A stretch of 64,000 nt of DNA from the NCBI GenBank assembly GCA_963719515.1, contig CAVRCJ010000010.1, forward strand, positions 256,001 to 320,000, in the 5' to 3' direction. The stretch comes from an uncultured cyanobacterium (GTDB lineage Bacteria; Cyanobacteriota; Cyanobacteriia; CAKZMO01). The translations under genes were made by a program, and so were the position numbers. The notes beneath the pieces were generated by a model that was not told where the DNA came from, ran no database searches, and worked only from the letters and a program-made list of their open reading frames with translations. Positions 42,648 to 59,343 of the stretch are shown one piece after another (position 1 is the first letter of the stretch; each line of letters begins with the position of its first letter).

Positions 42648-43676
42648 TTGACGCCTCAGGCGGACCTCATTCCCCAAGGCAGAGTCTACCCCCGAAATTC
42701 AGTGGTGAACGGCATGGAGCGAAATCACAACGTCCAAACGCTTTGGCGCAGCGCTGTGCGCATGGCTCGGTTTGCGCGCTTCTCCCAACCCACCCATCCC
42801 CTACCCGCCTGGTGCTTTTGGTCTGTCGCGGCCAATTTGGCGGGCGCGGGGCTCTTGGGGGGGGTGCTGATTTACGGGCAGATTCGCGCCGCTGCCTCGG
42901 CTGATCACGCTGCTAGCGCTAGCGCTGAGGCGGCTAGGCCCTCTGCACCGCACCCCGGTCGTTTAGCAACGTTTTCCCTCGGCGACGGGCAAGCCGCTGC
43001 CTCCAAGACATCCCTAGCGCCCCCAACCTCACTTGAGATTGGTCCTCGGCACAAGCTCGACTATCAAGACTGGCTAACCCTACTGGAGCAGGAGGCGATC
43101 GCGGTTAGCGAGCGATCGCCCGATCGGCTCACCGTTTTGCTGGGCGATTCCATCAGCCTGTGGTTTCCCCCCCACTTGCTCCCCCCTGAGCGCAGCTGGC
43201 TCAATCAGGGGATTTCAGGGGAGGTATCGTCGGGTCTGCTCAAGCGCCTAGACCTGATTGACCAGACCGAGCCTGAGACCGTCTTGGTGATGGTAGGCAT
43301 CAACGATTTGATTCGAGACGTCAGCTCCCAGACGCTGCTGGCCAACTACCAGCTGATTCTAGAAGAGCTGGTAGAGCATCATCCCAAGGCACAGCTTGTG
43401 GTGCAGTCGGTCTTGCCCCACGCTGGGGAAGCGGCCACCTGGGAAGGGGCAGCCCGGCTGCAGGAGATTCCCAACGCCGAAATCCGGGACATTAACGATG
43501 ACCTGAAGGCGATCGCCCTCAAGCACGACGCCCAGTACCTGGACCTCTACTCGCTGTTTAGCGACGGCGAAGGAAACCTGCGCTCGGAACTAACGACCGA
43601 CGGGCTGCACCTCAATACAAGCGGCTACCTGGTTTGGGCGACCGCGCTGCAGGTGTATCCCTTCGAAGATCGGTGA
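42648..43676 (+). CDS. SGNH/GDSL hydrolase
   Basis: GDSIS, NQGISG, GIND, DGLH; start uncertain; stop codon lies in the inserted element. Confidence 0.88.
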   Translation: MTPQADLIPQGRVYPRNSVVNGMERNHNVQTLWRSAVRMARFARFSQPTHPLPAWCFWSVAANLAGAGLLGGVLIYGQIRAAASADHAASASAEAARPSAPHPGRLATFSLGDGQAAASKTSLAPPTSLEIGPRHKLDYQDWLTLLEQEAIAVSERSPDRLTVLLGDSISLWFPPHLLPPERSWLNQGISGEVSSGLLKRLDLIDQTEPETVLVMVGINDLIRDVSSQTLLANYQLILEELVEHHPKAQLVVQSVLPHAGEAATWEGAARLQEIPNAEIRDINDDLKAIALKHDAQYLDLYSLFSDGEGNLRSELTTDGLHLNTSGYLVWATALQVYPFEDR

Positions 43677-43925
43677 CATCCTCCCGACGCTGACAGCAAG
43701 CTGTACAGCGCGGGCTTCCTCAGTGACTCCCAGCTATTGCCGAGACATATCCTGAGATAGGTTTATACTCCGCCTGATGCCCCACGGCAGAGTTTTGAAT
43801 TTTCATCTCCGCGAGGGAGGATACGCACTATGTGTCGCAGATACATTTGCAAACTGAGGAACGGGTGACTTGCAGCTTTCGCCTACGGGCCCGTCACACT
43901 CTTTGCGGGGTGTATCACCTTGCTA
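43673..43925 (-). ncRNA. Putative omegaRNA (TnpB guide scaffold) with 5' extension, copy 1
   Basis: The 3' ~120 nt is homologous to the tnpB 3'/right-end region of the IS with compensatory stems; extended -10-like TGGTATGAT at 43931-43939. Confidence 0.55.
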
Positions 43926-44064
43926 TCTCTATCATACCAACTGCTAGCCTCAGCGCTGAGCGCACTATCCGCTGTGCATCATTTTGCGGGCGCACTTCGG
44001 CTAGCGCGACTCTCATCCCGACGCTCACCCTAACGGGTAGAGCGCGGGGCTTCCTGTCTAGTAG
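43673..44064 (-). mobile_element. 392-bp non-autonomous IS200/IS605 derivative (copy 1)
   Basis: Both ends match the IS at 56171-57970; TTTAG precedes the left end; right end terminates in TCAC; one difference seen versus copy 2. Confidence 0.9.
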
Positions 44065-44123
44065 CTAAACTGGCATGGACTTTGCTAGGCTAAACGCAAT
44101 AGCGCGTACGCCAACGGCCCAGC

Positions 44124-45317
44124 ATGGATACCAAAACCTTCAAGCGATCGCTCAATCAGTCTGAGAACTATCACCGCAAAGGATTCGGCCACGAGGACGA
44201 CGTCTCGGGGATGATGGATAGCGAGTACCAAAGCTCTTTGATCCAAACCATTCGCGATCGCAACTACACCCTAACCCAGGGGGACGTTACGATTCACCTA
44301 GCCGAAGCGTTTGGGTTCTGCTGGGGCGTAGAGCGGGCGGTAGCGATGGCCTACGAGACGCGGCAGCATTTCCCTACTGAGCGCCTGTGGATCACCAACG
44401 AGATTATTCACAACCCCTCAGTGAATCAGCGGCTGCGGGAAATGCAGGTGCAGTTTGTGCCGATAGAGAGCGGCGTCAAGGACTTTTCCCCCATCGGGGC
44501 GGGAGACGTGGTGATTCTGCCTGCGTTTGGGGCCAGCGTTCAGGAGATGCAGACCCTCAACGACCGGGGCTGTGTCATTGTCGATACGACCTGTCCTTGG
44601 GTTTCTAAGGTGTGGAACTCGGTGGAAAAGCACAAGAAAAAAGAGTTCACCTCCATCATCCACGGCAAATATAAGCATGAGGAGACCGTAGCCACCAGCT
44701 CCTTTGCCGGGATCTACCTGGTGGTGCTGAACCTGGAAGAAGCCGAGTACGTGGCCCGCTATATCCTTGAAGGAGGCGATCGCGCGGAATTCCTAGAGAA
44801 GTTCCGCCACGCTCACTCCGATGGCTTTGACCCCGATCAGGATCTAAAGCGCGTGGGGGTGGCCAACCAAACCACCATGCTCAAAGGGGAGACGGAGCGC
44901 ATCGGCAAGCTGTTTGAGCACACCATGCTGACGAAGTATGGCCCTGCCGAGCTCATGGACCACTTCATGAGCTTCAACACCATCTGTGATGCCACCCAAG
45001 AGCGTCAAGATGCCATGTACCAGCTCATCGACCATCAGCTAGACCTGATGGTGGTCATCGGCGGCTACAACTCTTCTAACACCACCCACCTGCAGGAGAT
45101 TGCTGTGGATCGGGACATCCCGTCCTACCATATCGATAGCGCCGAGCGTATTGGTCCCGGTAACCAAGTCGAGCACAAACCTTTAGATGCGCCCCTCGAC
45201 CTGAAAACAGACTGGCTTCCCGAAGGTGCGATTACCGTTGGCGTCACCTCTGGGGCTTCGACGCCAGACCGCGTCGTCTCGGACGCTATTGAGAAAATCT
45301 TTGCGCTCAAAGCCTGA
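44124..45317 (+). CDS. ispH: 4-hydroxy-3-methylbut-2-enyl diphosphate reductase
   Basis: [36 protein letters not shown]. Confidence 0.97.
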
Positions 45318-45583
45318 TGCCGACCAAAAAGTCGAAATCGAAGCCCCTCACGGGCGACGCTCTGGTGAAAGAGGTCTGTCGCCGCATTCGCGTCGCCCGC
45401 TCCTACTGGGATGCCCACAATAATCGCGCCTGCCGAGGAGAACGAGAGAAAGCGCTGGCGCTCTATGAGCAGCTGACCCAAGCGCAAAAGGAAAAAGTGC
45501 CTCAGCAGCTACGCGTCTGGCTGCGCTACCGCAGCGAGAAGTACTTTGGGGAGCACCGCACGCCGCCCCATAAGTCACGCTGA
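45317..45583 (+). CDS. Small basic protein of unknown function, resembling a conserved cyanobacterial family
   Basis: TGATG coupling to ispH; CRRIRVARSYWDAHNN and WLRYRSEKYFG, recognised from memory only. Confidence 0.7.
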   Translation: MPTKKSKSKPLTGDALVKEVCRRIRVARSYWDAHNNRACRGEREKALALYEQLTQAQKEKVPQQLRVWLRYRSEKYFGEHRTPPHKSR

Positions 45584-45661
45584 CGAACGCAATGCCCCCC
45601 CGCAGACAGCGCCAGCAGGGGGGCGATCGCCGTAAGCCTCGCGAACAGCTTACTAGACTGC

Positions 45662-45914
45662 GTGACATCCTCCCGACGCTGACAGCAAGCTGTACAGCGC
45701 GGGCTTCCTCAGTGACTCCCAGCTATTGCCGAGACATATCCTGAGATAGGTTTATACTCCGCCTGATGCCCCACGGCAGAGTTTTGAATTTTCATCTCCG
45801 CGAGGGAGGATACGCACTATGTGTCGCAGATACATTTGCAAACTGAGGAACGGGTGACTTGCAGCTTTCGCCTACGGGCCCGTCACACTCTTTGCGGGGT
45901 GTATCACCTTGCTA
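45662..45914 (-). ncRNA. Putative omegaRNA with 5' extension, copy 2
   Basis: Same sequence as copy 1; different downstream guide. Confidence 0.55.
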
Positions 45915-46053
45915 TCTCTATCATACCAACTGCTAGCCTCAGCGCTGAGCGCACTATCCGCTGTGCATCATTTTGCGGGCGCACTTCGGCTAGCGCGACT
46001 CTCATCCCGACGCTCACCCTGACGGGTAGAGCGCGGGGCTTCCTGTCTAGTAG
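45662..46053 (-). mobile_element. 392-bp non-autonomous IS200/IS605 derivative (copy 2)
   Basis: Direct repeat of 43673-44064; inserted immediately 3' of TTTAG. Confidence 0.9.
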
Positions 46054-46785
46054 CTAAACCGTGAAGCTAAAGGCCATAAGCTCAGCTGAACTGGGGAAAA
46101 CGCCGCCATCAAACTGAGGCAGAGTGTCGAGCGGAACATCGATTTCAGGCCCCATTGCCGCTTCCGGCAGGCCTACGATAAAGATAGGGATTTCAGGCAG
46201 GGCACTCCCCTCGGTAAGTGGGTCAGTCGCCAAGGCGTCAGCAGCAAAGGGATCAATGGGGAGCAGTTCAGCTGGAATTTGGTAGACCGAGGCGATCGCT
46301 TCGCCTGCCACTGACGCCAGGACATCGACCACCAAATCGTAGTCCACGCCCACCGCAGGAATCTCTCCCGTCAGTGAGTCGACCACCGCCGTAATCACAA
46401 CGTCCCCGGTCATATCCTGCAGCCCAATGGCCAGGATGTTGGATACCTCCAAGGCAGGAGCTTCTAAAACAGCCTCGTCAGAGCCTTCGACTCGCTCTTC
46501 CGGAGTGCTCAGGGCTTCGAGAATAGCCAGCGTATCTGGGTCGGCAAATTCTCCGGTGACGTCTAGCTCGACGGGCAGCGTGCTGAATCCAAGCAAATCT
46601 ATTACGACGCTATTGACGACGCCCGCGTCTCGAAGCAGGTCCAAGGTAATAAACTTAACGGCCTCAAAGGAAATCTCAACAGTCGGCTCAACGAGCGGCG
46701 CTACCGGCAGGCTTGTCTCTGTAGGGACAACAGTTGCAGCAAATTGGCTTGCTACAGGTGAAGGGTTAGGGATGACAGCAGTCAT
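46054..46785 (-). CDS. Hypothetical highly acidic protein
   Basis: 243-aa ORF, rich in D/E/V/L/A/P, almost no K/R. Confidence 0.6.
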   Translation of the reverse strand: MTAVIPNPSPVASQFAATVVPTETSLPVAPLVEPTVEISFEAVKFITLDLLRDAGVVNSVVIDLLGFSTLPVELDVTGEFADPDTLAILEALSTPEERVEGSDEAVLEAPALEVSNILAIGLQDMTGDVVITAVVDSLTGEIPAVGVDYDLVVDVLASVAGEAIASVYQIPAELLPIDPFAADALATDPLTEGSALPEIPIFIVGLPEAAMGPEIDVPLDTLPQFDGGVFPSSAELMAFSFTV

Positions 46786-46943
46786 TTTAGAAGGCCTCTA
46801 GAGATTTGGCATAGCCAATGTCCTGATGCATCGGGATATTGGCGTGTCCTATCGCCTATTCAATGTCAGGCCCTGAGTCAAAAGCGTTGTTTGAAGCGAT
46901 AGGGGTAAACGCAGCACATAACAATCGCTGCTTTCTCTCTACT

Positions 46944-47016
46944 ACAAAAAAGACGCAAATCTGGAACATTTTGTGCCCTGTTGCGGTCACAGCGACATAA
47001 AACATTCCAGATTTGC
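46944..47016 (-). terminator. Long hairpin plus U-tract downstream of the 47056-48120 gene
   Basis: GCAAATCTGGAA...TTCCAGATTTGC stem (46955-47016), followed on the minus strand by GTCTTTTTT. Confidence 0.6.
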
Positions 47017-47055
47017 AGTTAATGGCTTAAGGTGGCCGTCCAGCCACGACCGTGC

Positions 47056-48120
47056 CTACTCGCGAATCAAGGTCAAATCGGCCTCAGAAAAGGACTCTCC
47101 GTTGAGGCTGGCGCTGGCGCTGACTTGGTACTCCGTCCCTGAGCCAGCGGTGAAGCCCCGCAGCGGTACCTCAATCCGAAACTCTCCCTCCTCGTTAGCC
47201 ATCACGCGCTGGTCGAGGATAGTTTCCCCAAGGCTGACGAGCCCTAAGACAGAGCGACTCGTCTGCACAACGACGCTCACCTCAGCGCCGGGCCGAGTTT
47301 GCCCCACTAGGGTGATGCTGCCGCTTGACACGGACTCGCCGTCGCTGTGGCTGGTGAACTCAAGTCCAGCGGGAGCAACCGCTATGGGTTCTTCCGAAGA
47401 GGACGCAGGTGACTCTGTCGTGGTCTCAACCGCAGGGGTAGAGGCGGCTGCCGCTGAGGGGCTAAACTGCAGCGGCTGTTCCGCGACGCCGTAGACCGGC
47501 TGCCCCTGCTGCTGCAGCCGGCCCACAACAATGCCTTCTGTGACTGACCCGCTGGGCACTGTCAGCGTGGCCACATAGACGCCGGGAGACACTTCTTCGG
47601 TTGCTAGCACCTGCACCGTTTGTTCGTCATTGACCAGCAGCACCGAGGCGATCGCCCCCGGCGTGCCGGTCACGGTAGCGAGAAAGTTGTCGCCAGGGGC
47701 TACGGCGCTGCTAGCGTTGTGGGTCACTGAATCGATGGCGATCGCCTGCTGCAAGGGCTGAACCGCAAACTCCCAAGAGGACGCCCGCGTTTCCCCTGCA
47801 GCGCTGTTGTACTCCACACGCACCGTGACAGGACCGGGGGCAAAAGGCTGGCTAGGGCGATAGCTAAAGAAGGTGTCAGTGACGACGCTGCTGGCGGTAA
47901 CGTCTTCTCCATTGACCAGCAGTTTCACGGAGTTTGGCGCAACGGTTTGACCGTCAGTAGCCTCAAACCTACCGTAGATAGACGCGTCGGGGGAGATGTT
48001 GTCGCTGTCTACTGCCGGGTTAACGCCGACCACTTGCTGCGCGATGGCAGCAGAGGGAATGAGCAGCGGTAGGCCGGTGAGGCCAGCGGCAGCGATGAGC
48101 GATAGGGCAAGTCGTTTCAT
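47056..48120 (-). CDS. Secreted protein with Ig-like beta domains
   Basis: MKRLALSLIAAAGL... signal peptide; beta-strand-rich mature region. Confidence 0.7.
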   Translation of the reverse strand: MKRLALSLIAAAGLTGLPLLIPSAAIAQQVVGVNPAVDSDNISPDASIYGRFEATDGQTVAPNSVKLLVNGEDVTASSVVTDTFFSYRPSQPFAPGPVTVRVEYNSAAGETRASSWEFAVQPLQQAIAIDSVTHNASSAVAPGDNFLATVTGTPGAIASVLLVNDEQTVQVLATEEVSPGVYVATLTVPSGSVTEGIVVGRLQQQGQPVYGVAEQPLQFSPSAAAASTPAVETTTESPASSSEEPIAVAPAGLEFTSHSDGESVSSGSITLVGQTRPGAEVSVVVQTSRSVLGLVSLGETILDQRVMANEEGEFRIEVPLRGFTAGSGTEYQVSASASLNGESFSEADLTLIRE

Positions 48121-48585
48121 AAAAGGTGAGGTAATGTCCGGAAATAGTTCAAACTTCAATTATATTATTCGGAGGTGTTTGTCAAGGCCCGGAAAGGGCC
48201 AGTTTTGGAGATAGGTCTTCTGATCTTGACTTTTCCCGAAAAAGTGGACACTTCCGAAAAGAGGCTAAATAAAGATGTTCACATGTAGCAAATGTCCTGA
48301 TGCTTAGGACATTTGCGCGCCTCATTACCTATGCTATGTAAAGTTTTGAGTCCACGACACTGTCCTCAGCAATATGGCCAAAGCTATAAATCAGCAGCGA
48401 CGTCGAGAATTTGCAGACTTTTTAGCCAGACCAGCAAGGACGTCCTGGCCTCAATAAGTGGGTTGTGGGCAGACTCTGTGCCTCAGTTCAAGATTGGCGC
48501 GCTTTTTCTCTAGGTGTCCTTAAAGGCAGGGTGAAACACCTTATTTGCCAACGGCACCACGGCGGGTTGAGAGCACAGCCTATCT

Positions 48586-48681
48586 AAACCTTTGGCCAAA
48601 GCCGCTTGTTAAAACCTTTGGCCAAAGCCGCTTGTTAAAACCTTTGGCCAAAGCCGCTTGTTAAAACCTTTGGCCAAAGCC
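48586..48681. repeat. 26-bp tandem repeat (~3.7 copies) duplicating the 3' end of the Omp85 gene
   Basis: AAACCTTTGGCCAAAGCC at 48586, 48612, 48638, 48664, joined by GCTTGTTA. Confidence 0.95.
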
Positions 48682-50514
48682 AAAGTGAAGCCGACTGTCT
48701 CCCTGGTCGTTGAGCCCAAAGTCAGCCCGAATCAGTCCGATAGGAGAACCAAACCGTAGCCCTACCCCATACCCAAACCCTGTTCCCGGCTTATCCCGCA
48801 CCCCGGCAGGATTTCCCGGAACGTCTTCTCCAGTACCCAAATCAGTCCCAATATCGGTAAACAAAACGCCGCCAACAAACCGGTAGATCGGAAAGCGATA
48901 TTCCGCCGACGCTAGCGCATAGCTGCGGCCACTGCCCACATCTCCCGCCCCGTAACCGCGCACTGAGCTGATACCCCCCAGATCAAAAGCCTCGTAGGGC
49001 GGCAAATCACCCAGTATCGTGCCCGCCTGTAGATTAAAGGCAAAGACTTCGGGGTTGCTGAGACGGCCCGAGCCAAACAGATTGACGGGAATGAAGCGGG
49101 CATAGTCCGCCCGCAGACGATTCATGAGGATGCTGCCGCTGCCGATGGGCACCGACTGCTCAGTGCGCAGAGAGAGCACCGAGCCGCCGCTAGGGTTGTT
49201 GGGGTTGATGCGACGATCCTGGGCCAGGCCAAAGCCCAAGGTAAACAGGTCGTCCGTCCCCGAGTCGCTAAAGGTTAGCTGGTTGCCGAGTTCATCTTCA
49301 TTGAGGCGATCGCCGCTGTCATCGCGAATGCTGGTGCGGGCGTAGCTGAAGCCTAGCTCAGCGTCCCAGTTACCCAAAGGCCGCAGCACCGATGCCCCCC
49401 CGCCGATCTGTCGCTCCCGCGCTTCGTCACCGTTAGACAGCAGCACCTCGTCGCTGAAGGTGAGGGACTGACTGCCACTGCGGAACGCTTCTAGGCCGTA
49501 GCCCAGCCGATTAGGTCGACTCTCGCGGTAGGGGCTGGTAAATCCGGTGTTGAAGTTGAGGCCGCGTCCGCCAATCTGCGCTCCTAGTCGCACCGCCTCG
49601 CCCCGCCCGCGAAAGTTACCGTCGCGGAAGTTTAGGGAGCCAAACAGCCCTAGCTCCGTACTCACCCCACCCCCAACGCGAAACGAGCGGGCTAGCTGCT
49701 CCTGCAGGCGGTAGGTGATATCGACCACGGGCTGCGCAGTCGAGTTGTCGACGTCCAGCTCCACCGCCGCCGTCTCAAACACCCCCAGGCTCATCAGCTG
49801 CTGTAGGTCTTGCCGAATGGTGGCCTGGTTAAACACCTCTCCGGGCTGGGTCTCCAATTCCCGGCGCACAAAGTCTTCTTGGGTACGCCCCTCTACCGGT
49901 TCGCCCTCGGCGTCAATGCCGCTGCCGGTCTCATCTAGAAACCGAATCGCAATCTCGCTGATTAGGGGCTCCTCCACCTCCACCGTCAGCCCGCCTGAGG
50001 GCTCCGTCATCAGCCCCACCACGCGGGAGAGAGTGTAGCCGTTATCGAGATACCAGCTGTCGAGGCGATCGGCGATTTGCTCTAGGGTAAGGGGCGTCAG
50101 GGAGCGGCGCAGAAAGGGAGCGGTGACCTCAGCGGCGATGTCCGGCGTCAGCGCCTTGGCCCCCACTAGGGTCAGCGACGGTTGTGAAGCTGGTTCAGGG
50201 TAGGGCAATATGGGGAGCGGATCGGCGGCAGACGGCCCAGCAGACGGCCCCTCAACAGGCAAATCAACTAGCGGCGCTACGCCCTCCGACCTATCAGCAG
50301 GCTGCGGCCCCTCAGCAGGCACACTGCTGGGCGTTTCTTCCGGGTAAGGCAGTACCGCCGAGGGGTCACCGTCGATATCACTCCAGGTCTGCGCCTGAAC
50401 CGGCAGCCCAGCCGCCAGGCCAAGTAGCACTCCAAACCCGACCCAGTTTAATCCGTTCCCATTCACGCCGCTTCCCCCGCTTCTTGACGCCGCTAGTGCT
50501 GAATATTTGGACAA
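48661..50514 (-). CDS. Omp85/BamA-TamA family outer-membrane protein
   Basis: POTRA-like region, SVRGY, SAEYRFPI, C-terminal FGFGQRF; start uncertain. Confidence 0.9.
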   Translation of the reverse strand: MSKYSALAASRSGGSGVNGNGLNWVGFGVLLGLAAGLPVQAQTWSDIDGDPSAVLPYPEETPSSVPAEGPQPADRSEGVAPLVDLPVEGPSAGPSAADPLPILPYPEPASQPSLTLVGAKALTPDIAAEVTAPFLRRSLTPLTLEQIADRLDSWYLDNGYTLSRVVGLMTEPSGGLTVEVEEPLISEIAIRFLDETGSGIDAEGEPVEGRTQEDFVRRELETQPGEVFNQATIRQDLQQLMSLGVFETAAVELDVDNSTAQPVVDITYRLQEQLARSFRVGGGVSTELGLFGSLNFRDGNFRGRGEAVRLGAQIGGRGLNFNTGFTSPYRESRPNRLGYGLEAFRSGSQSLTFSDEVLLSNGDEARERQIGGGASVLRPLGNWDAELGFSYARTSIRDDSGDRLNEDELGNQLTFSDSGTDDLFTLGFGLAQDRRINPNNPSGGSVLSLRTEQSVPIGSGSILMNRLRADYARFIPVNLFGSGRLSNPEVFAFNLQAGTILGDLPPYEAFDLGGISSVRGYGAGDVGSGRSYALASAEYRFPIYRFVGGVLFTDIGTDLGTGEDVPGNPAGVRDKPGTGFGYGVGLRFGSPIGLIRADFGLNDQGDSRLHFGFGQRF

Positions 50515-50933
50515 ATCGTTCGGGCCTGTTGCTCAGCGGGAGGGCGCTCTTGCCACCCAGACAGCAGTCCTTGAAGCTCACTCTGCAGCATCGTCAGCTC
50601 GTCAATTTGAACTTGAACCGCCGCCAGCTTCTCTACAAGATACTCCTTGACGTCGCCGCAGGGCAGCTGGCCCTGGTCATGCACCCCTAAAACTTGCCGC
50701 ACCTCGTCTAGGCTCAGACCAAGGGACTGGGCGCGTTTGATAAAGGATAAACGGTTGAGCACGGCAGGCGCAAACAGCCGGTAGCCCGAGGGCGATCGCG
50801 ATACGGTGGGGTTGAGCAGACCGATGTCTTCGTAGTAGCGAATCGTTTTAATCGGTAGCCCGGCCTCCTGGGCCACTTGGCCAATCTTGAGGCGGTGTTC
50901 GGTAGAGGGTTGAATCGATCGAGTCATGATCAA
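50493..50933 (-). CDS. MerR-family metal-responsive regulator
   Basis: IGQVA..TIRYYEDIGLL, FIKRAQSLGLSL, PC and CPNI cysteines. Confidence 0.92.
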   Translation of the reverse strand: MIMTRSIQPSTEHRLKIGQVAQEAGLPIKTIRYYEDIGLLNPTVSRSPSGYRLFAPAVLNRLSFIKRAQSLGLSLDEVRQVLGVHDQGQLPCGDVKEYLVEKLAAVQVQIDELTMLQSELQGLLSGWQERPPAEQQARTICPNIQH

Positions 50934-50958
50934 TAGCTCGCAGCAGCAATACGGCCTG

Positions 50959-51162
50959 CTAAGATTCTGTTGCGCCCTGCGCCCTTTGCCAGGAGTGCAG
51001 CAGCAGGGCCACCGCCGAGAGACCGGCCCCAGTCAAAAATAGGGGCAGCCTAGGGTGCGCGCCTCCAATCATCATATCAACTAGCCCTATGGTGAAGATA
51101 AAGCTTGGTATGGGGTACTGGCAGTAGGACTTTCTCAAAAGGTGTCGCCAGAGATAGCGCAT
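50959..51162 (-). CDS. Small two-TM hypothetical protein
   Basis: 67 aa with two hydrophobic segments, co-oriented just upstream of the MerR gene. Confidence 0.55.
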   Translation of the reverse strand: MRYLWRHLLRKSYCQYPIPSFIFTIGLVDMMIGGAHPRLPLFLTGAGLSAVALLLHSWQRAQGATES

Positions 51163-51235
51163 GGGCGGTAAGTTCGTCCAAGTAGATTTATATTAGAATA
51201 GTAGACCGCTGCGGAACTATAGTCTGCTAGCGTCT

Positions 51236-51320
<85 letters not shown>

Positions 51321-51427
51321 TCAATGGTTGCCGCCCCATCGGAGCTCAAGGTAAACGCTATGGGCAAGATTTTGTTCTCGGACGAGATTCACCGCCTACC
51401 TACCTTTCGCCCCGACTTACCTACAGT

Positions 51428-52174
51428 ATGGACGTCAGCCTCTACCTTTGGCTTAGCCTTGCCAGTACAGTTAGCTGGTTCATCAGCACCCTGGCGGGGG
51501 GCGGCAGCTCCCTAATTTTGATTCCTGTGGTGGGCATGCTGCTGGGAACGGCAGCGGTACCTCCGGTCATCACGGTGGGGGGTGTCTTTGGCAATATCGG
51601 GCGTATAGTAGCTTACCGCAGCCACATCTGCTGGCGACTGGTGGCCTGGGAGCTGCCGGGCGCTGTGGTTGGCGCTTATTGCGGAGCCTTCGCCCTGACA
51701 AGAATAGAGATCCCGTGGCTGAGCGCGGCGATCGCTTTATTTTTATTGGGTTCGGCAGTGAGCTACGGAATAAAGGGAGAGGCCGCGTCGTTCACGGTGC
51801 GGCCCTGGTACTTCCTTCCGGGAGGTCTAATCTACGCCCTTTTCTCTGGCCTCATCGGCAGTATGGGGCCGCTTCTTGCCCCCTTCTACCTCAACTACGG
51901 CCTCACCAAAGAGGGGCTGCTGGCCACCCAGGCCACCAACCGGACAGCGGTGCATCTAATCAAGGTGGTGGTCTACAGCTATTTTGGGATTTTGACGGTG
52001 CAGACAGCGGGGCTGGGAGTGCTGATGGGGGTGGCGGCGTTTCCCGGAAACTGGCTGGGTCAGAAGGCTTTGAAGCGCATTAGCGAGCAGCAGTTCCGAC
52101 GGCTAGTGATTGGCTTCGTGACGGTGAGCGGGGGCCTGCTGCTGTGGGACCAGCGGCAGGCCTTCGGGCTTTAG
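51428..52174 (+). CDS. TauE/SafE family membrane protein
   Basis: STLAGGGSSLIL, SGLIGSMGP, multiple TM helices; ATG at 51428 (the track ORF runs through the tRNA). Confidence 0.85.
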   Translation: MDVSLYLWLSLASTVSWFISTLAGGGSSLILIPVVGMLLGTAAVPPVITVGGVFGNIGRIVAYRSHICWRLVAWELPGAVVGAYCGAFALTRIEIPWLSAAIALFLLGSAVSYGIKGEAASFTVRPWYFLPGGLIYALFSGLIGSMGPLLAPFYLNYGLTKEGLLATQATNRTAVHLIKVVVYSYFGILTVQTAGLGVLMGVAAFPGNWLGQKALKRISEQQFRRLVIGFVTVSGGLLLWDQRQAFGL

Positions 52175-52238
52175 CAATGAGCGGCTGGTTCCCAGAATGA
52201 GTCGGTTCTGGGCTCTACAGAAGGCAGCGCGGCGCGGC

Positions 52239-53024
52239 CTACTCCGCAGTCGTCACCTGCAGACGGCGAGTGGTGCCGACAATGCCGTCATCGCGCACCA
52301 CGACTGCCGACAGCCACCGCTGTCCTGGCGTCGCAGGAGCCTGCCCCACCTTAAAAAGTCCGCCAGACGTCAGCAGCTCGAATTCGATTTCCGGGAGGGC
52401 TACATAACCCGCCGAGCTAACAATCTCCTCAACAGCCGTTCCCAGCAGTAGACGCTCTCCCAACGGCTCGACAACAATCGCATCAAAATAAAACGACTCC
52501 CCCGTATCCACTTGCTCTGGCAAATTCACCTTTAGCTCTGGCGGGTTGTTGCCTGCGGTGACGCTGCTGCTCTCGCTCAAAATGTTTTGGCTGATAATCT
52601 GGCCGTTGACAATGTCCTGCTGCGCCGTCAGCTCCGCCGTCAGCAGCAGCGCCTGGTCCCCCATCTCGCGGGTGCCGGTAATCGTCGTGGTGGTTTCGGT
52701 GCTGTAGCCCGTACCAGTGCGCTCCCAGCTGTCGACGTTTGTCTCGTAGACTAAGTTATCGTACTGCTCCCAAAACTGGATGAGCGCTGCCTCTAGGTCG
52801 TCGCGGGTCAGGCCATCGCCATGGGACAAGGTTTCGCTATAGGCCTCTAGCACCTGCAGCAGGTCTTCCTGGCTGGCGGCTTGATCGAGCTGCTGTACAA
52901 AGGTCATTATGTCTGGCGGGGTCTGAGCCTGAGCCACACTCGCTGTGGCCACTGAGGCAGCAAGTCCGAAGCAGACTAGCGCAGCACGCCGTAGCGCGGT
53001 AAGGCAGGAGTGAGAGTGGAGCAT
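52239..53024 (-). CDS. Secreted NTF2-like fold protein
   Basis: Signal peptide ending AQA, then HGDGLTR...GGLFKVG; ATG at 53024 avoids overlap with murG. Confidence 0.7.
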   Translation of the reverse strand: MLHSHSCLTALRRAALVCFGLAASVATASVAQAQTPPDIMTFVQQLDQAASQEDLLQVLEAYSETLSHGDGLTRDDLEAALIQFWEQYDNLVYETNVDSWERTGTGYSTETTTTITGTREMGDQALLLTAELTAQQDIVNGQIISQNILSESSSVTAGNNPPELKVNLPEQVDTGESFYFDAIVVEPLGERLLLGTAVEEIVSSAGYVALPEIEFELLTSGGLFKVGQAPATPGQRWLSAVVVRDDGIVGTTRRLQVTTAE

Positions 53025-53314
53025 GATGTATAGAGTTAACGTAGGGGTAAGAGGAATAGAATCGCTTGAGTGAGTCGCGTCTGCGAGGACCAGGCGGCAG
53101 TGGCTGTGCGGCGGTGGCCAGAAGACGGCTGTTACTGTAACTGTAGTAGACGCAGCTGAAAATCGGCACCAAGAGGCTAACTCAATCTTCCGTAGGCGAT
53201 CGCGGCAATACGGACAGTTTGGGCACAAATGCATGATAGCGACTGCATAATAGCAAGTGCGTGATGACGAATCCAATAGAGCAAACGCGGCAAACGTAAC
53301 AACGGGATGCAACT

Positions 53315-54412
53315 GTGGCTGAAACGAAGAAACTGCTGGTAGCGGCAAGCGGCACAGGAGGTCACCTGTTTCCCGCGATCGCGACGGTGGAGCAGCTCTC
53401 AAACTGCGAGGTGGAATGGCTCGGAGTTCCCAACCGGCTAGAGACACGCCTGGTGCCTAAGCAATACCCGCTGCACTTGGTCAACCTTGAGGGTATCCAG
53501 ACGGCGCTGGGGCTAGGGGGCATTCGCCTATTTTTCCGGCTTTTAGGCTCCGTCCGGCAGGTGCGTCAGCTGCTCAGGCAGGGCCAGTTCGACGGCGTAT
53601 TCACCACCGGCGGCTATATCGCCGCCCCCGCCATCATTGCCGCCCGCTCGCTGGGTTTACCCGCCGTCCTACACGAGTCTAACGCCCTACCCGGCAAAGT
53701 CACCCGCTGGCTGAGTCCCTGGTGCAGCACCGTCGCCCTGGGCTTCTCCGCCGCCGCTGCCCATCTGCCTAAAGCTAAGGCTGTCTGTGTAGGCACCCCG
53801 GTGCGCCAGGCCTTTCAGGATCACGGTGCCGGGGCATCTTTGCCAGAGCTCGATATTCCGGCGGACGTCCCCCTAATCGTCGTGGTAGGGGGGAGCCAGG
53901 GCGCTGTCGCCGTCAACCGCCTGGTGCGCCAGAGCCTCAAGGCCTGGCTGACGGCGGGGGCCTGGGTGGTTCACCTGACGGGGGACAATGACCCCGACGC
54001 CGATGCCGTAGACCTTCCCCAATACATTCATCGCCCCTTCTACGACGATATGGCGGCGCTGCTGCAGCGGGCAAATCTCGCGATTAGCCGGGCGGGGGCG
54101 GGCACTCTGGTGGAGCTGGCCATCACCCAAACCCCCGCCATCCTCATTCCCTACCCCTTCGCCGCAGAGAATCACCAGACCTTCAACGCCGCCGTGTTTG
54201 CCGCCGCCGGGGCGGCCCAGGTCCACCAGCAGTCTGACCTCGACGCCCAAACCCTAGAGCAGCGGGTGCTGTCGCTGCTGCAGTGCCCCGAGCGCCTAGA
54301 GGAAATGGCGATCGCCGCTGAATCTTTGGCGGTTACCGATAGCGCCACCCGACTGAGCCAGCTGATTGACGAGCAGCTTTGCGCCCGCCACGGCCCTAAA
54401 GCCGGGCGGTAG
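53315..54412 (+). CDS. murG: UDP-GlcNAc:lipid I N-acetylglucosaminyltransferase
   Basis: SGTGGHLFP, HESNALPG, GGSQGA, SRAGAGT. Confidence 0.96.
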   Translation: MAETKKLLVAASGTGGHLFPAIATVEQLSNCEVEWLGVPNRLETRLVPKQYPLHLVNLEGIQTALGLGGIRLFFRLLGSVRQVRQLLRQGQFDGVFTTGGYIAAPAIIAARSLGLPAVLHESNALPGKVTRWLSPWCSTVALGFSAAAAHLPKAKAVCVGTPVRQAFQDHGAGASLPELDIPADVPLIVVVGGSQGAVAVNRLVRQSLKAWLTAGAWVVHLTGDNDPDADAVDLPQYIHRPFYDDMAALLQRANLAISRAGAGTLVELAITQTPAILIPYPFAAENHQTFNAAVFAAAGAAQVHQQSDLDAQTLEQRVLSLLQCPERLEEMAIAAESLAVTDSATRLSQLIDEQLCARHGPKAGR

Positions 54413-54450
54413 GGACAGGGCGCTACCGTGCCTTGACAAGATTCATTCCC

Positions 54451-55350
54451 TTAATCCGGCGGCAAAAAGTCTAGGCGAGGCTGAGGAAACACCTGGGTCC
54501 GCAGCGTGGGGTTGTCAGAAGGCTGCCCCGAACGGCCGCTAGCGGGGAGCTGTCCGCGCAGACTCAAAATCACGTCCTGCCCGGCCCCCACGCAGCCCAA
54601 AACGCTGTCCACCTGCGCCAGCACAGGCGCTGTTGCCGTCGGCTGATAGCCCTCAGGGCAGACCCTACCCCCCTGCGCTGAAAAGTCGATAAAATCCACT
54701 AGCGGTACGGGCGCGCTGCCCCGTAAGGAGGGACGGCCCGCCTGTTGGTTGGCCAGTGTAGCGCCATTATAGGACCACGGCCAGCTCCAGAACCGGTGGC
54801 GCGAGGGGTCGACGTAGCCGGGGACGACTGCGCCGCTTTGACGAAACTTGGTGAGGGTGTAGCGCAGAAGCCGGGCTTCTCCCGCCCAGATGTCGCCATC
54901 GTCAAGGCCGCTCACCAGGTAGACCACCAGACTGTAGGCGTGCTGCGACTGGCATTCTGCCGCGGTCAGTCGTCCCTGCCGGCAGTGCTGCAGCACCGTC
55001 GCGGATAGGGGCGTCTGTCGCCAAAAGGCCAGCACCGGATAGCGATCGCTCTCTGGCCCTAGGGTGACCGGCAGGTGGTAGGCCAGCCCCGGACAGCCTC
55101 CGCCTTCTATGGGTCTGCGCCCTTGACCTAGGCAGCCGCCATCGTAAACGTACAGGGCCTGACGCAAATCTTCAGCCATGTAGTCCAGCGATCGCTTCAG
55201 GTCGGCATGCACCCGATTGCGGCTCATGTGGCGCTGGTTTGCGCTCAGCAGCGTAGAGGCCAGGTGCAGGGTCACCGACACAATACCGCCCGCGATTAGC
55301 ATCACCACGAGCAGCTCCGTGAGGGTGAAGCCTGCCTCAGTGTTCTTCAC
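54451..55350 (-). CDS. Prepilin-type pseudopilin (possibly HpsC-like)
   Basis: G|FTLTELLVV class III signal. Confidence 0.8.
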   Translation of the reverse strand: MKNTEAGFTLTELLVVMLIAGGIVSVTLHLASTLLSANQRHMSRNRVHADLKRSLDYMAEDLRQALYVYDGGCLGQGRRPIEGGGCPGLAYHLPVTLGPESDRYPVLAFWRQTPLSATVLQHCRQGRLTAAECQSQHAYSLVVYLVSGLDDGDIWAGEARLLRYTLTKFRQSGAVVPGYVDPSRHRFWSWPWSYNGATLANQQAGRPSLRGSAPVPLVDFIDFSAQGGRVCPEGYQPTATAPVLAQVDSVLGCVGAGQDVILSLRGQLPASGRSGQPSDNPTLRTQVFPQPRLDFLPPD

Positions 55351-55356
55351 CGGCTT

Positions 55357-56112
55357 CTACTCCCTGCAGCCCTGAGCGTGGTAGCACAGCAGGGCGGCAG
55401 GGGCATCGCTCGGGGCAATGGTCGCCGTGGCGATCGCCAGCGGACGGCGAGTCATCCCTTGGCCTAACCGCATCGGGGCTATCTCAGTTTGCAGGTCTAC
55501 CGCTTTTGACGCGGCGTAGACCCGTACCGTCACGCCGAACGGAGCGGCTTCGTTCGAAGCCGACGGGCCGCCCTGGCGAAACACCTGCACCAGAAATTCA
55601 GGGTCGCAGGCCGCGTCACCGTCCACATCCACACCCGTGACCTCTACCGGCGCAAGATCTTCTGTCTGACAGTGGGCATGGGTGGAGCGAAGGGCCGCGA
55701 TCGCCTGGGGTGGGGGCTGCTGAGCGGGGTCACCGGCGGCACTTACTGGCGGCAGGCCGCCTAGGTCTAGCCCTGAAGTTGAGGCTTGTCTTACGAGCGA
55801 TCGCACCCGGTCGATCTCGGCTTGGGCCAGGTGCTGCGCCTGCTGAATGCGCTGGGCCTGCAGCTGGGCAGCGGCGGCGAGCAGCAGCGGTGGCCCGACT
55901 AAGGCTCCCGCTAGGGCCACTGTGGTGATCGAGACTAGGCATTCTATCAGCGTCAGCCCTGCCTCAGGGGCAGCCTGAGGAATGGGGTCCGCTTGCGCTT
56001 GTTTTGCAGGGGGCGCCGTCTGGGAGATTTTTAGAGGGACGCTATAGCTGTAGCTTAGCCGCCGCCATAGCCGCCTCCGGCCCCGCTGTCTCGCTCTTCC
56101 TACCCGGCGCAT
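55357..56112 (-). CDS. Prepilin-type pseudopilin (possibly HpsB-like)
   Basis: G|LTLIECLV class III signal, AQAEIDRVR; true start uncertain. Confidence 0.75.
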   Translation of the reverse strand: MRRVGRARQRGRRRLWRRLSYSYSVPLKISQTAPPAKQAQADPIPQAAPEAGLTLIECLVSITTVALAGALVGPPLLLAAAAQLQAQRIQQAQHLAQAEIDRVRSLVRQASTSGLDLGGLPPVSAAGDPAQQPPPQAIAALRSTHAHCQTEDLAPVEVTGVDVDGDAACDPEFLVQVFRQGGPSASNEAAPFGVTVRVYAASKAVDLQTEIAPMRLGQGMTRRPLAIATATIAPSDAPAALLCYHAQGCRE

Positions 56113-56216
56113 TGCCCATTTCCCTCGCTCCTACGCCGCTAGGGTACCCGGGATAGGAGAAGAGACAACTGTGACATCCTCCCGACGCTGATGCTACGCA
56201 TACAGCGCGGGCTTCC

Positions 56217-57413
56217 TCAGTGACTCCCAGCTACCGCTGAGACATTTCCTGAGAGATTAAGGGCTTGATGTCCCACAGCCCTATTCAATAGGTTGATAGC
56301 CGCGTTGTGGTCGCGACAGATCGTTAAGCCGCATGACGGGCAACTATGGACCCGATCGGCCAGCGTCTTTGGTACCCGCTCACCACAACCCGAGCAATCA
56401 ATGCTGGTTCCGCGTGGGTTCTCAGCGATGGTCATCTTTCCAGCTTTCGCGGCTTTGAAAGAGCCTATCTCCAAGAATGTACCCCATGCGGCATCAGCGA
56501 TTGACTTTGCCAGTCTGGTTCGAGCAAGTCCTTTGATGTTGAGCTTTTCATGAGCGACAACATCGTACTTTGAGAACAGCCAATCCCACACCTTAGAAAA
56601 GAAATCACGACGCTGACGCGATATCTTTAGATGTAGTTTGGCGATGCGATTTACCTGCTTACGCCAGCGGTTAGAGCCCTTCTTCTGTCTCGATAGCTGC
56701 CGCTGCAGCTTGGATAGCTGCCGCTCTGAGCGTCGAAAGAACTGAGGGATAGGAACGCTCTCACCGTCACTGGTAACCAAGAAATCCTTCAGCCCAACGT
56801 CAACACCGACAGACTTAGCCCTATCGACATCCGGAGTAAGCATCGGAACGGCATTGTTTTCCAGTAACAGGCTCACATACCAACCATCTGCTTTGCGAGT
56901 CACCTTGGCCGTTTTGACAGTAAACCCATCAGGTATCGGGCGATGAAGGATTAGCTTCACCTGGCCAATCTTAGGCAGGGTAATACGACTTCCATCGATG
57001 CAGTCAGGTTTCATCTGCGGGAACGTGAACGTCCTGTAGCGCCCCGCGCCTTTGAACCGAGGCTTGCCGCTACGCTTACCATTCCTATCACCTTTGATGA
57101 AACGCTCGAACGTCTGCTTTACCTGCTTCGTCACCTCCTGAAGCGCTTGTGAATGCAAATCTTTGTACCAGGGCCGCTCTCGCTTGAGAGGTACTAGGCT
57201 AGCCTTCTGGCTGTAGTAATTAGGATTATCTTTGAGTGGCGCAAGGCTACAGGTGAGTGGGCAGGCGTTGACCGAACAGCGGTTCATCTCCCACCAGTCG
57301 AAGCGCTCAGCCAGCAACCAGTTGTACTGTGCCCGAAGCATATCTAGCCATCGGGTCATGGTAACCGTTTGCTCAGCCGTTGGGCGTAACCTGTACTGAT
57401 GGGTGATTTTCAC
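56217..57413 (-). CDS. tnpB: RNA-guided endonuclease TnpB
   Basis: YRLRPT, GVDVGL, AHEKLN, CSGC...CPSC, RDHNAA; RuvC D-E-D intact. Confidence 0.95.
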   Translation of the reverse strand: MKITHQYRLRPTAEQTVTMTRWLDMLRAQYNWLLAERFDWWEMNRCSVNACPLTCSLAPLKDNPNYYSQKASLVPLKRERPWYKDLHSQALQEVTKQVKQTFERFIKGDRNGKRSGKPRFKGAGRYRTFTFPQMKPDCIDGSRITLPKIGQVKLILHRPIPDGFTVKTAKVTRKADGWYVSLLLENNAVPMLTPDVDRAKSVGVDVGLKDFLVTSDGESVPIPQFFRRSERQLSKLQRQLSRQKKGSNRWRKQVNRIAKLHLKISRQRRDFFSKVWDWLFSKYDVVAHEKLNIKGLARTRLAKSIADAAWGTFLEIGSFKAAKAGKMTIAENPRGTSIDCSGCGERVPKTLADRVHSCPSCGLTICRDHNAAINLLNRAVGHQALNLSGNVSAVAGSH

Positions 57414-57466
57414 TACTGCGTCTAAGTCAGTGATATCATAATAGCATACGCTGATTTCGATGCACC

Positions 57467-57946
57467 ATGAAAAATGACTTTGTTTCTAGCGGTCGCTCAA
57501 TTTCAGACCTTAAGGCCCATCTGGTTTTGACGACGAAATACTGCCGTAAGGTTTTTACCGAAGAAATGATACGGCGACTTCTAGAGGTTGTCGGAGATCT
57601 GTGCGAGAAGTGGGACTGCAAGATGATTGAGTTCAACGGAGAGGCCGACCACGTTCATCTGCTGTTTCAGTATTATCCGCAGATGGAGCTACCCAAGTTC
57701 GTCAGTAATTTGAAGTCTGTTTCCAGCCGCAGGCTGAGGTCGGAGTTCGCGGAGCGAGTAGACCAGTTCTACTGGAAGTCTGTTCTCTGGAACGAATCGT
57801 ACTTTATCGCCAGTTGTGGCGGGGTCACTGTCTCTGTGCTGAAACGGTACATTGAGCAGCAGGACGCCCCGGAGATGGGTGCTTCTGGGGCATTGAACCC
57901 CGTCAGCACCCGCGACTCTCATCCCGACGCTCACCCTAGCGGGTAG
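57467..57946 (+). CDS. tnpA: Y1 HUH transposase TnpA
   Basis: HLVLTTKY, DHVHLL (HUH), KRYIEQQ (catalytic Tyr). Confidence 0.95.
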   Translation: MKNDFVSSGRSISDLKAHLVLTTKYCRKVFTEEMIRRLLEVVGDLCEKWDCKMIEFNGEADHVHLLFQYYPQMELPKFVSNLKSVSSRRLRSEFAERVDQFYWKSVLWNESYFIASCGGVTVSVLKRYIEQQDAPEMGASGALNPVSTRDSHPDAHPSG

Positions 57947-57978
57947 ATCGCGGGGCTTCCCGTCTAGCAGCTAAAGCG

Positions 57979-59343
57979 CTAGCCGAGGGTCAGCGCCAGC
58001 TGCTTACGGGCCACGGGCCGCCCCGTAAGGCTGAAGGCCCTAACTTCGGTGATCTCTACGTCCACCAGCTGGCCCTGTAGATCCGAATTGCCTGCGAAAA
58101 ATACCAGCCGGTTGCCTCGGGTCCGCCCCATAACCTGAGCCGCATCTCTTGGGTTAGCCCCCTCCACCAGCACCTCTTCCACTCGGCCCGCGTAGCGCTG
58201 CGATCGCTCTGCCGCCTTCACCTCCACGAGGCGATTGAGCCGCTGGAGGCGATCGCTCTTGACCGCCTCAGACAGCTGGTTTTCCCAGAGGGCAGCGGGG
58301 GTGCCGGGGCGGGGAGAATAGGCCGCCGTATTGAGGAGATCGAAGCCAACCTCATCGACAAGGGTCATCGTCTGCTGGAACTGCTCCTCTGTCTCTCCGG
58401 GAAAGCCCACAATGGCGTCGGCGCTGATGGCCGCGTCAGGCATCAGCCCGCGAATCTTGTCGATGATGCGCCGGTAGCGATCGCGGGTGTAGCCCCGACC
58501 CATGGCCTTGAGCAGGTCGTTGTCCCCCGACTGGAAGGGAATGTGAAAATGCTCGCACACCTTGGGCAGCTCGGCGCAGGCGCGAATCAGCCGCTCGGTG
58601 AAGTAGCGGGGGTGGCTGGTGGCAAAACGAATGCGATCGATGCCGGGGCTATCGTGGACAAAGTAGAGCAGGTCGGTGAGGGTGTGCTGGTGGCGGCCTT
58701 CAGCTGTCGAGCCAGGCAGGTCACGGCCATAGGCGTCGATGTTTTGCCCCAGCAGCGTCACCTCTCGGTAGCCCTGCTGCCCTAGCGCCTCCATTTCAGC
58801 GCGGATGGCCTCCGGGGTACGAGACTGCTCTACGCCCCTCACCCCCGGCACTACGCAGTAGGTGCAGCGTTCGTTGCAGCCGTAAATCACGTTTACCCAG
58901 GCGCTAACCTTGCTGTCGCGCCGGGGCTTGGTAATGTCCTCCATGATATGGACAGGCTCAGTCGCAACCACCTGTTCCCCGGCCTCCACCTGCTCTAGCA
59001 GATCCTGCAGCCGATTAGCATGCTGAGGCCCCATCACCAGGTCTAGTTCGGGGACTCGCCGCAGCAGGGCTTCACCCTCTTGCTGAGCCACGCAGCCCGC
59101 CAGTACCAGCGTCAGCGTCGGCTCGCTCTGCTTGCGTTTGGCCTGTCGTCCCAGATAGGAATAGACTTTTTGCTCGGCGTTGTCGCGGATAGTGCAGGTG
59201 TTGTAGAGGACTAAATCTGCCTTTTCCGGCGATGCCTCAAACTGGTAGCCCATTGACTCCAGAATTCCGGCCATGCGCTCGGAGTCGGCTTTGTTCATCT
59301 GGCAGCCGAAGGTGGTGATGTGGTAGCGGCGGGGTGCAGTCAT
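57979..59343 (-). CDS. miaB: tRNA-2-methylthio-N6-dimethylallyladenosine synthase
   Basis: [21 protein letters not shown]-terminal TRAM domain. Confidence 0.96.

Follow-up and report, generated by a model that had tools for sequence, protein, structure and literature searches.

A 64,000-nucleotide (nt) stretch of the genome of an uncultured cyanobacterium (contig CAVRCJ010000010.1, positions 256,001 to 320,000; the whole stretch is called the window below) contains two nearly identical 392-bp cassettes devoid of genes. They are non-autonomous IS200/IS605 derivatives of the palindrome-associated transposable element (PATE) type with an omegaRNA-like guide scaffold, and we consider it probable that they are moved by TnpA and used by TnpB, both acting in trans, and thereby guard their own insertion sites. 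Mobilisation by TnpA in trans is strongly indicated by the sequence, and use of the cassette RNA by TnpB in trans is the best reading, drawn by analogy with known TnpB systems.

Both copies lie on the minus strand (copy 1, 43673-44064; copy 2, 45662-46053). As the initial annotation had noticed and direct alignment confirms, they are identical over 392 nt except for one base in the loop of the left-end hairpin (GTTA versus GTCA on the minus strand, that is TAAC versus TGAC on the plus strand). The likeness of the two copies breaks off precisely at TTTAG (5′) and at ...GATGTCAC (3′). Read on the minus strand, each copy is preceded by TTTAG, the target or transposon-adjacent motif (44065-44069 for copy 1 and 46054-46058 for copy 2), and terminates with ...GGATGTCAC; the boundaries of copy 1 are set by an exact 392-nt skip in a metagenome contig. 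Each end carries a subterminal imperfect palindrome with the same foot, CCCGCGCT...AGCG(T)CGGG, and GGAAG before it, and there are no terminal inverted repeats. The left-end hairpins are located at 44017-44048 and 46006-46037, the latter containing the base that differs, and the right-end ones at 43683-43714 and 45672-45703, where the TnpA hairpin is also stem 4 of the predicted RNA. The 16-nt flanks 3′ of the right ends, whose coordinates were checked, are the predicted guides, placed by analogy with TnpB omegaRNAs: CGATCTTCGAAGGGAT for copy 1 (43657-43672, minus strand) and GCAGTCTAGTAAGCTG for copy 2 (45646-45661, minus strand).

Six-frame translation of the cassette gives no conserved protein, and its longest open reading frame (ORF), of 78 amino acids (aa), lies on the antisense strand. 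A conserved small antisense protein was considered and rejected: in two families the antisense ORFs, of 78 and 80 aa, look different when compared by eye, unaligned. The cassette does retain a frame remnant of the TnpB C-terminus (..AVGHQA..AGSH and a stop), and the module therefore descends from the 3′ end of tnpB; tnpB-linked relatives bear the same module.

The likely helper is a full insertion sequence (IS) of 1800 bp at 56171-57970 (minus strand). It encodes a Y1 transposase, TnpA, of 159 aa (57467-57946, plus strand; Pfam Y1_Tnp, E 7.5e-41) and a TnpB of 398 aa (56217-57413, minus strand; Pfam OrfB_IS605, Cas12f1-like_TNB and HTH_OrfB_IS605), matched by ISDra2 TnpB structures with E 5e-44. 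An alignment of this TnpB with a designed TnpB-like nuclease shows motifs that we take for the zinc-finger cysteines and the acidic residues of RuvC. The own omegaRNA module of the IS, of 120 nt (56171-56290, minus strand), overlaps the 3′ end of tnpB. The initial annotation had described the cassettes as protein-free IS200/IS605 elements that share both ends and the TTTAG/TCAC boundaries with this IS without being a simple internal deletion of it, and this description stands. The cassette has in common with the IS and with its 1483-bp tnpB-only derivative the target motif, the ...GTCAC end, the left end (nt 1-68, 92-96% identity) and the last 85 nt (nt 308-392, 85-88%), to which nucleotide likeness is limited, whereas it has neither tnpA nor tnpB, its nt 69-307 find no match in the genome other than the cassettes themselves, and the lineage of its stem 1 and linker is a different one. 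Three 1.8-kb copies of the IS are present in the genome, all with full-length Y1_Tnp and tnpB and with the ends shared by the cassette. The tnpB family further comprises elements without tnpA (1483 bp in 14 cases, 1484 and 1612 bp in one case each) and two right ends for which no left end was found; its copies follow TTTAG in 15 of the 18 cases with an identified left end. A tnpB element whose protein is 99% identical to that of the window, and whose 120-nt module is identical, was also seen (L096, 701-1943) on a 369-kb contig of a metagenome-assembled genome (MAG) labelled Rubricoccaceae, a non-cyanobacterium, where a binning error or a recent transfer is possible.

The cassette has moved recently and is apparently still mobile. 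By blastn, the genome holds 53 full-length copies that are 96.4-100% identical (17 at 100%, 32 at 99.0-99.7% and four at 96.4-98.7%), and this little divergence points to a recent burst. The table of copies and flanks proposed by the initial annotation shows TTTAG before 47 of them, GTTAG before three and CTTAG before three, with 3′ flanks that are all distinct and mutually unrelated and with no target duplications. The predicted guides have no second target because each 16-nt flank, that of copy 1 included, is present once in the genome and none is found elsewhere after NTTAG. A 1069-nt contig from metagenome run X2 joins 43671/2 to 44064/5, skipping exactly 392 nt with 0 and 1 other letters on its two sides; on the minus strand, its TTTAG is directly followed by the predicted guide of copy 1. 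This empty-site allele is either the pre-insertion site or the product of a precise excision and, by analogy, it is the exact target that TnpB loaded with the copy 1 RNA would cut. Another joint at copy 1, in run X1 (391-nt skip and 11 other letters in a short divergent contig), is ambiguous and was left unused. In the same-genus genome G002, the GDSL gene adjoins ispH and no cassette is found at this junction, a comparison that covers the copy 1 site only, as synteny stops downstream of the small ORF. The cassette is present once in G002, at 93% identity, and partially in genome G004, at 86%.

Variable columns among the 53 copies are fewer in the 3′ part (7 in 218-394 versus 31 in 1-217), and of these seven 3′ sites, read by eye, four keep the pairing, two open a terminal pair and one is in a loop. 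A distant-mode blastn search of phage and plasmid collections with the cassette gave no match. A second pair of cassettes on the same strand and about 1 kb apart, like the pair of the window, is located at G000:C6:167508-167899 and 168886-169277 (G000 being the present genome); that two such close pairs exist, with 53 copies in a genome of 5.3 Mb, is suggestive of local reinsertion. A composite transposon carrying ispH between the two copies of the window was considered and rejected, ispH being at the same place in the contig without copy 1 and in G002, where the GDSL-ispH junction has no cassette.

Next to the guide, the cassette would encode an omegaRNA-like scaffold (43673-43793 for copy 1 and 45662-45782 for copy 2, minus strand) consisting of stem 1 with a putative pseudoknot loop, stems 2-3, the right-end hairpin and a 3′ tail. 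The last 127 nt of the cassette have a predicted fold of -54.1 kcal/mol (z -4.31), and none of 200 shuffled sequences was equally stable. This module folds into three units: stem 1, formed by ACUCUGCC-loop-GGCGGAGU; nested stems in which CUCAGG...CUGAGG encloses UCUCGGC-AAUA-GCUGGGA; and the right-end hairpin. The loop of stem 1 contains GGCAUC, complementary to GAUGUC at positions -8 to -3 ahead of the guide. All stem pairs quoted in the initial annotation are present in the sequence, where AGGGCT/AGCCCT of the IS corresponds to ACTCTGCC/GGCGGAGT of the cassette and ATGC-gta-GCAT to ACAGC-tt-GCTGT, CTCAG/CTGAG being conserved; the complementarity that it noted between the loop G(A/G)CATC and the terminal GATGTC is there as well. 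The change at the apex of the right-end hairpin is uninformative about RNA because it is located in the DNA hairpin bound by TnpA. A scan of 43000-58500 against Rfam with E up to 1 gave no match in the cassettes or the IS and, elsewhere in this region, one tRNA and three sub-threshold matches.

The pairing was followed in an alignment of 11 distinct modules, three of them gene-less (the cassette and relatives in two other genomes) and eight tnpB-linked (the resident IS and seven relatives whose TnpB are 69-81% identical). Paired bases occupy 89.3% of the 450 cells of these 11 sequences, versus 34.6-42.8% when the partners are slid. Changes on both sides affect 12 of the 41 pairs, compared with 2-6 in the slid controls; 12 was reached in one of 500 shuffles, a control that overstates significance as the aligned sequences are mutually related, the slid one being fairer. 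In stem 1, six of the eight pairs have changed on both sides. A covariance model built on the module, a check which had also been put forward, recovers 74 strong matches in the genome (at least 118 bits), namely the 53 cassettes and 21 right ends of the tnpB family. By its predicted pairing, kept across gene-less and tnpB-linked relatives, the scaffold is of the omegaRNA type, and these data are compatible with a putative pseudoknot of the stem 1 loop with the tail. In several tnpB-linked relatives (L097-L100, L101, L103-L105 and L114), the stem 1 loop reads GAUGUC in place of GACAUC; both altered bases still pair with the unaltered 3′ tail as G-U wobbles, and the change converts a His into a Cys in the TnpB tail (AVGHQ to AVGCQ).

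As judged from its closest relatives, the scaffold is a mosaic, with stem 1 from a gene-less lineage spread over the cyanobacteria, stems 2-3 from the resident IS, and the hairpin from another IS variant. Stem 1 with the linker (cassette nt 266-307) is closest to a gene-less element of another cyanobacterial family (36/42 positions, versus 14/42 for the resident IS), stems 2-3 (nt 308-345) to the resident IS (34/38, versus 9/38 for that gene-less element), and the hairpin with the tail (nt 346-392) to a tnpB-linked IS in a Phormidesmis MAG (46/47, versus 42/47 for the resident IS). The stem 1 pattern of the cassette was found at 38 loci in the collection of species-representative genomes, in MAGs labelled Leptolyngbyaceae, Elainellaceae, Leptolyngbyales, Nostocaceae, Chamaesiphon, Synechococcales, Xenococcaceae and uncultured cyanobacteria. 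At the 16 informative loci, those with at least 700 nt upstream, a left end following TTTAG lies about 290-350 nt upstream and none has an adjoining tnpB, one having a tnpB fragment about 1.2 kb away. No autonomous or tnpB-linked parent with the stem 1 of the cassette was found in its own genome or among the 38 loci of the pattern scan.

The compensatory differences are thus inherited from other lineages through mosaicism and, contrary to what the initial annotation had implied, have not arisen within the cassette after its loss of tnpB. Of the objection that it had itself raised, a covariation merely inherited, one part is right, the differences being indeed inherited, but stem 1 comes from elements that are themselves gene-less, and therefore only a constraint at the RNA or DNA level can maintain its pairing. 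We can tentatively go one step further, in a direction that we hold to be possible though rather doubtful, and regard the cassette not as a decayed copy of the resident IS but as belonging to a lineage of guide-RNA-only transposons that is old, evolves independently and extends across cyanobacterial orders. Such elements, with their own promoter and leader, would parasitise TnpA and TnpB of autonomous elements and swap their 3′ scaffold and end modules by recombination to fit the resident helper. This idea fits the data because of the mosaic itself (36/42, 34/38 and 46/47), the lack of an adjoining tnpB at all 16 informative loci, and the excess of cassettes (53) over helpers (21 with tnpB and three with tnpA).

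About 250 nt upstream of the right end and directed at it, the cassette displays an extended -10-like box, TGGTATGAT (43931-43939 for copy 1 and 45920-45928 for copy 2, minus strand), which reads TGCTATACT in the G002 copy and TGGTATAAT in the G004 copy. Of 14 gene-less relatives read by eye, 13 have a TGnTAnnnT box at the corresponding position, the exception being GGCTATACT. In the strict sigma-70 scan of 43600-44120, the plus strand yielded one antisense site, and two terminator-like sites, both weak, came up as well. This antisense site, GAGACA-16-TATACT (window 43742-43769), lies within the scaffold, is directed at the left end and is the sole promoter-like site that the scan detected in the cassette (one found versus 0.2 expected).

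Between the box and stem 1 extends a leader of about 130 nt. A structured 5′ leader was considered and rejected, nt 140-271 folding no better than shuffled sequences (z -0.65, 45 of 200 shuffles equally stable); three sequences yielded a single compensatory pair among 32, too small a number for a judgement. Other gene-less elements differ in this region: in a widespread lineage the -10 box is immediately followed, some 150 nt ahead of stem 1, by a 5′ RNA domain that is strongly conserved, AUUGGUGnAGYCGCCA..CCGGAAUG..GGGAAUG..GAGUCGG (seen in L066, L064, L068, L073, L075, L078, L087 and L090). This domain (TGGTGnAGYCGCCA...) is not found in the cassette of the window, and its motif occurs once in the genome, outside the cassettes, where it is likely a chance match. 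Another box, GAGTCG..GGTGCGCCC..GATGC..GAAGGC-like, is conserved between gene-less families between the left-end hairpin and the -10 box; it occupies nt 52-100 of the cassette (45954-46002 in the window, minus strand) and recurs at the corresponding position in L122, L123, L078 and L053.

The way in which such an element could work can be outlined as follows. TnpA made elsewhere in the genome would excise and insert the cassette as single-stranded DNA. The internal extended -10 promoter TGGTATGAT would start a transcript of about 250 nt running through the right end into the flank, and TnpB, also made elsewhere, would trim the 5′ leader and load the scaffold of about 121 nt together with some 16 nt of flank as guide. 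After excision, the rejoined site, which is TTTAG plus a match to the guide, would be cut by TnpB, and repair from a cassette-bearing sister chromosome would restore the cassette. By these five steps each copy would therefore guard its own site, the autonomous IS supplying both proteins.

Several points, besides the relatedness of the aligned sequences, weigh against this proposal. The putative loop-tail pseudoknot, of six positions, has one-sided changes in three of its six pairs, which are still paired, and both-sided changes in none, and its sixth pair is lost in four of the 11 sequences. TnpA in any case requires one part of the conserved pairing, that of stem 4, in the DNA itself. In both stem 1 and linker the cassette is unlike the resident IS, having another sequence and a linker 6 nt longer, and compatibility of the cassette RNA with the resident TnpB is assumed by analogy with ISDra2 TnpB, which contacts mostly the RNA backbone. 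As for transcription, the strict two-hexamer sigma-70 scan of 43600-44120 found no promoter on the strand of the element, and a promoter at TGGTATGAT is likely on the strength of the conserved extended -10 box, read by eye.

Two other explanations have to be weighed. The cassette could be a plain PATE or miniature inverted-repeat transposable element without any working RNA, its right end being kept by the need of TnpA or by the youth of the copies, and its transcripts being noise. The negative promoter scan and the double role of stem 4 speak in its favour, and within the genome conservation says little among 53 copies that are 96.4-100% identical. We nevertheless find this explanation unlikely, as conservation and pairing extend about 121 nt from the end, far past the terminal hairpin, and include stem 1, in which six of the eight pairs have changed on both sides across lineages. 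Moreover, the stem 1 of the cassette type was found in gene-less elements only (no tnpB adjoining at the 16 informative loci), where the coding constraint is gone but pairing and loop are kept, and the TGnTAnnnT box is retained in 13 of the 14 gene-less relatives.

Still less probable, in our view, is that an RNA is made for another role, as a decoy competing with the IS guide for TnpB, as an antisense or regulatory RNA running into the neighbours or as a cofactor of transposition. This would agree with the excess of cassettes over tnpB elements of the family (53 to 21) and with the leader of about 130 nt ahead of the scaffold, which has no known function. The transcripts would also run antisense into neighbouring gene ends, the guide of copy 1 being antisense to the last codons of the GDSL gene, and the biological role of stand-alone omegaRNAs is given as unknown in a passage of PMC10691335. 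The anatomy of the cassette is however exactly that of a homing guide, with target motif, scaffold and flank as guide; the 53 flanks are mutually unrelated, and the leader is no more stable than shuffled sequence. Homing guidance through TnpA and TnpB in trans remains for us the probable function of the cassette.

Modules of this kind reach well beyond the genome studied here. Of 151 cyanobacterial genomes sampled, 52 (the present one included) have a match to the covariance model with E up to 1e-6, and these fall into 33 of 80 genera. Among other genomes, the 28 best loci, each from a different genome, were examined for what lies upstream: 12 show a tnpB match of near-full length, eight have a 3′ tnpB fragment only, two of them cut by the contig end, and eight show no TnpB similarity, one of these having a 423-aa ORF. 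The complete genome G040 has at least 24 matches, the best one without TnpB similarity upstream. Gene-less modules of the cassette type, as predicted by the model, are thus common in the cyanobacterial class. At least three further families of elements of about 420-470 bp were also seen in the same genome (L122 405-583 and L123 435-611 on G000:C1 and C4; G000:C10:332128-332545, C13:184113-184530 and C3:19080-19213; about 25 more places). In each of them TTTAG or TTAG precedes a left-end hairpin, a box reads TAGAAT or TACAAT, a stem-1-like hairpin has the form GTCTGGG-GT(G/T)GGTCAT(C/T)(A/G)-CCTGGAC, and the terminus is ...ATGTCAC; no TNB-domain match adjoins those compared. Gene-less guide cassettes may be about as numerous in this genome as tnpB genes (81 TNB hits).

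Both insertions of the window meet the end of a neighbouring gene. Copy 1 falls on the stop codon of a GDSL-lipase-like gene (42648-43676; window 43671-43676 and 44065-44069), which ends ..CGG TGA with the cassette and would end ..CGC TAA in the empty-site allele, the protein being unaltered by the insertion. At copy 2, the TAG of TTTAG is the stop codon of ORF 46054-46785 (minus strand). Further on, positions 48560-48681 contain four tandem 26-bp units with the palindrome AAACCTTTGGCCAAAGCC.

Elements of this kind are already in print, and the cassette adds no new kind of mechanism. PATEs of the IS200/IS605 family are said to be treated in Dyall-Smith et al. 2011 (PMC3119063). The cassette resembles PATEs, as far as the sources at hand describe them, in being protein-less and multicopy, in having the ends of a resident IS605-family element and in its presumed mobilisation by TnpA in trans. 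It differs from them by its cyanobacterial host, by its very high copy number per helper (53, versus 21 tnpB and three tnpA elements), by the mosaic scaffold, and by having a conserved extended -10 box and, ahead of the scaffold, some 130 nt of leader. In Geobacillus stearothermophilus, a section of the preprint of Meers et al. 2023 (PMC10055086) describes gene-less PATE-like elements and states that PATEs often encode omegaRNAs that would need TnpB acting in trans.

A literature search for such cassettes in cyanobacteria found no paper, which is a weak negative. Stand-alone, mobilised omegaRNAs of OMEGA systems were reportedly described by Altae-Tran et al. in 2021. In the part of Altae-Tran et al. 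2023 (PMC10691335) devoted to them, stand-alone and evidently mobilised omegaRNAs beside effector loci were shown to work in trans with compatible effectors. The likeness with the cassette lies in loci without effector and transposase, in effector-bearing loci in the same genome and in the action in trans, which is shown there, whereas the cassette is known here from sequence.

The closest structural model is the ISDra2 omegaRNA. Nakagawa et al. 2023 (PMC10097598) report, in the passages on the RNA, that the functional scaffold measures 116 nt and has four stems, and that nt -5..-3 form a pseudoknot with the stem 1 loop; the first 115 nt at the 5′ end of the omegaRNA are dispensable, the RNA is trimmed at its 5′ side, and TnpB contacts mostly the RNA backbone. 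Compared with that description, the cassette has a similar scaffold length (about 116-121 nt) directly 5′ of the guide, the overlap with the 3′ end of tnpB in the parent element, and the same order of elements: a 5′ stem 1 whose loop faces the nucleotides that immediately precede the guide, then a nested pair of stems, then the terminal hairpin. On the other hand, the cassette shows no sequence similarity to ISDra2, its target motif reads TTTAG where that of ISDra2 reads TTGAT, and pseudoknot and triplex are only putative in the cassette.

Four features mark the present case: a copy number that is very high relative to the helpers, a mosaic scaffold, an extended -10 box conserved among relatives, and an empty-site allele seen in a metagenome. 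It offers a natural example in which the guide RNA alone would be the mobile unit, with exact boundaries, 53 guide-target pairs, a candidate promoter and intact helper TnpA and TnpB. This makes it a convenient system to learn whether TnpB serves guides in trans in the native host and to what extent drift of the scaffold sequence is consistent with compatibility. It is equally suited to the question whether gene-less guide elements compete with their helpers: if a guide-RNA-only lineage does exist in cyanobacteria, its cassettes may compete with the own guides of the IS for TnpB.

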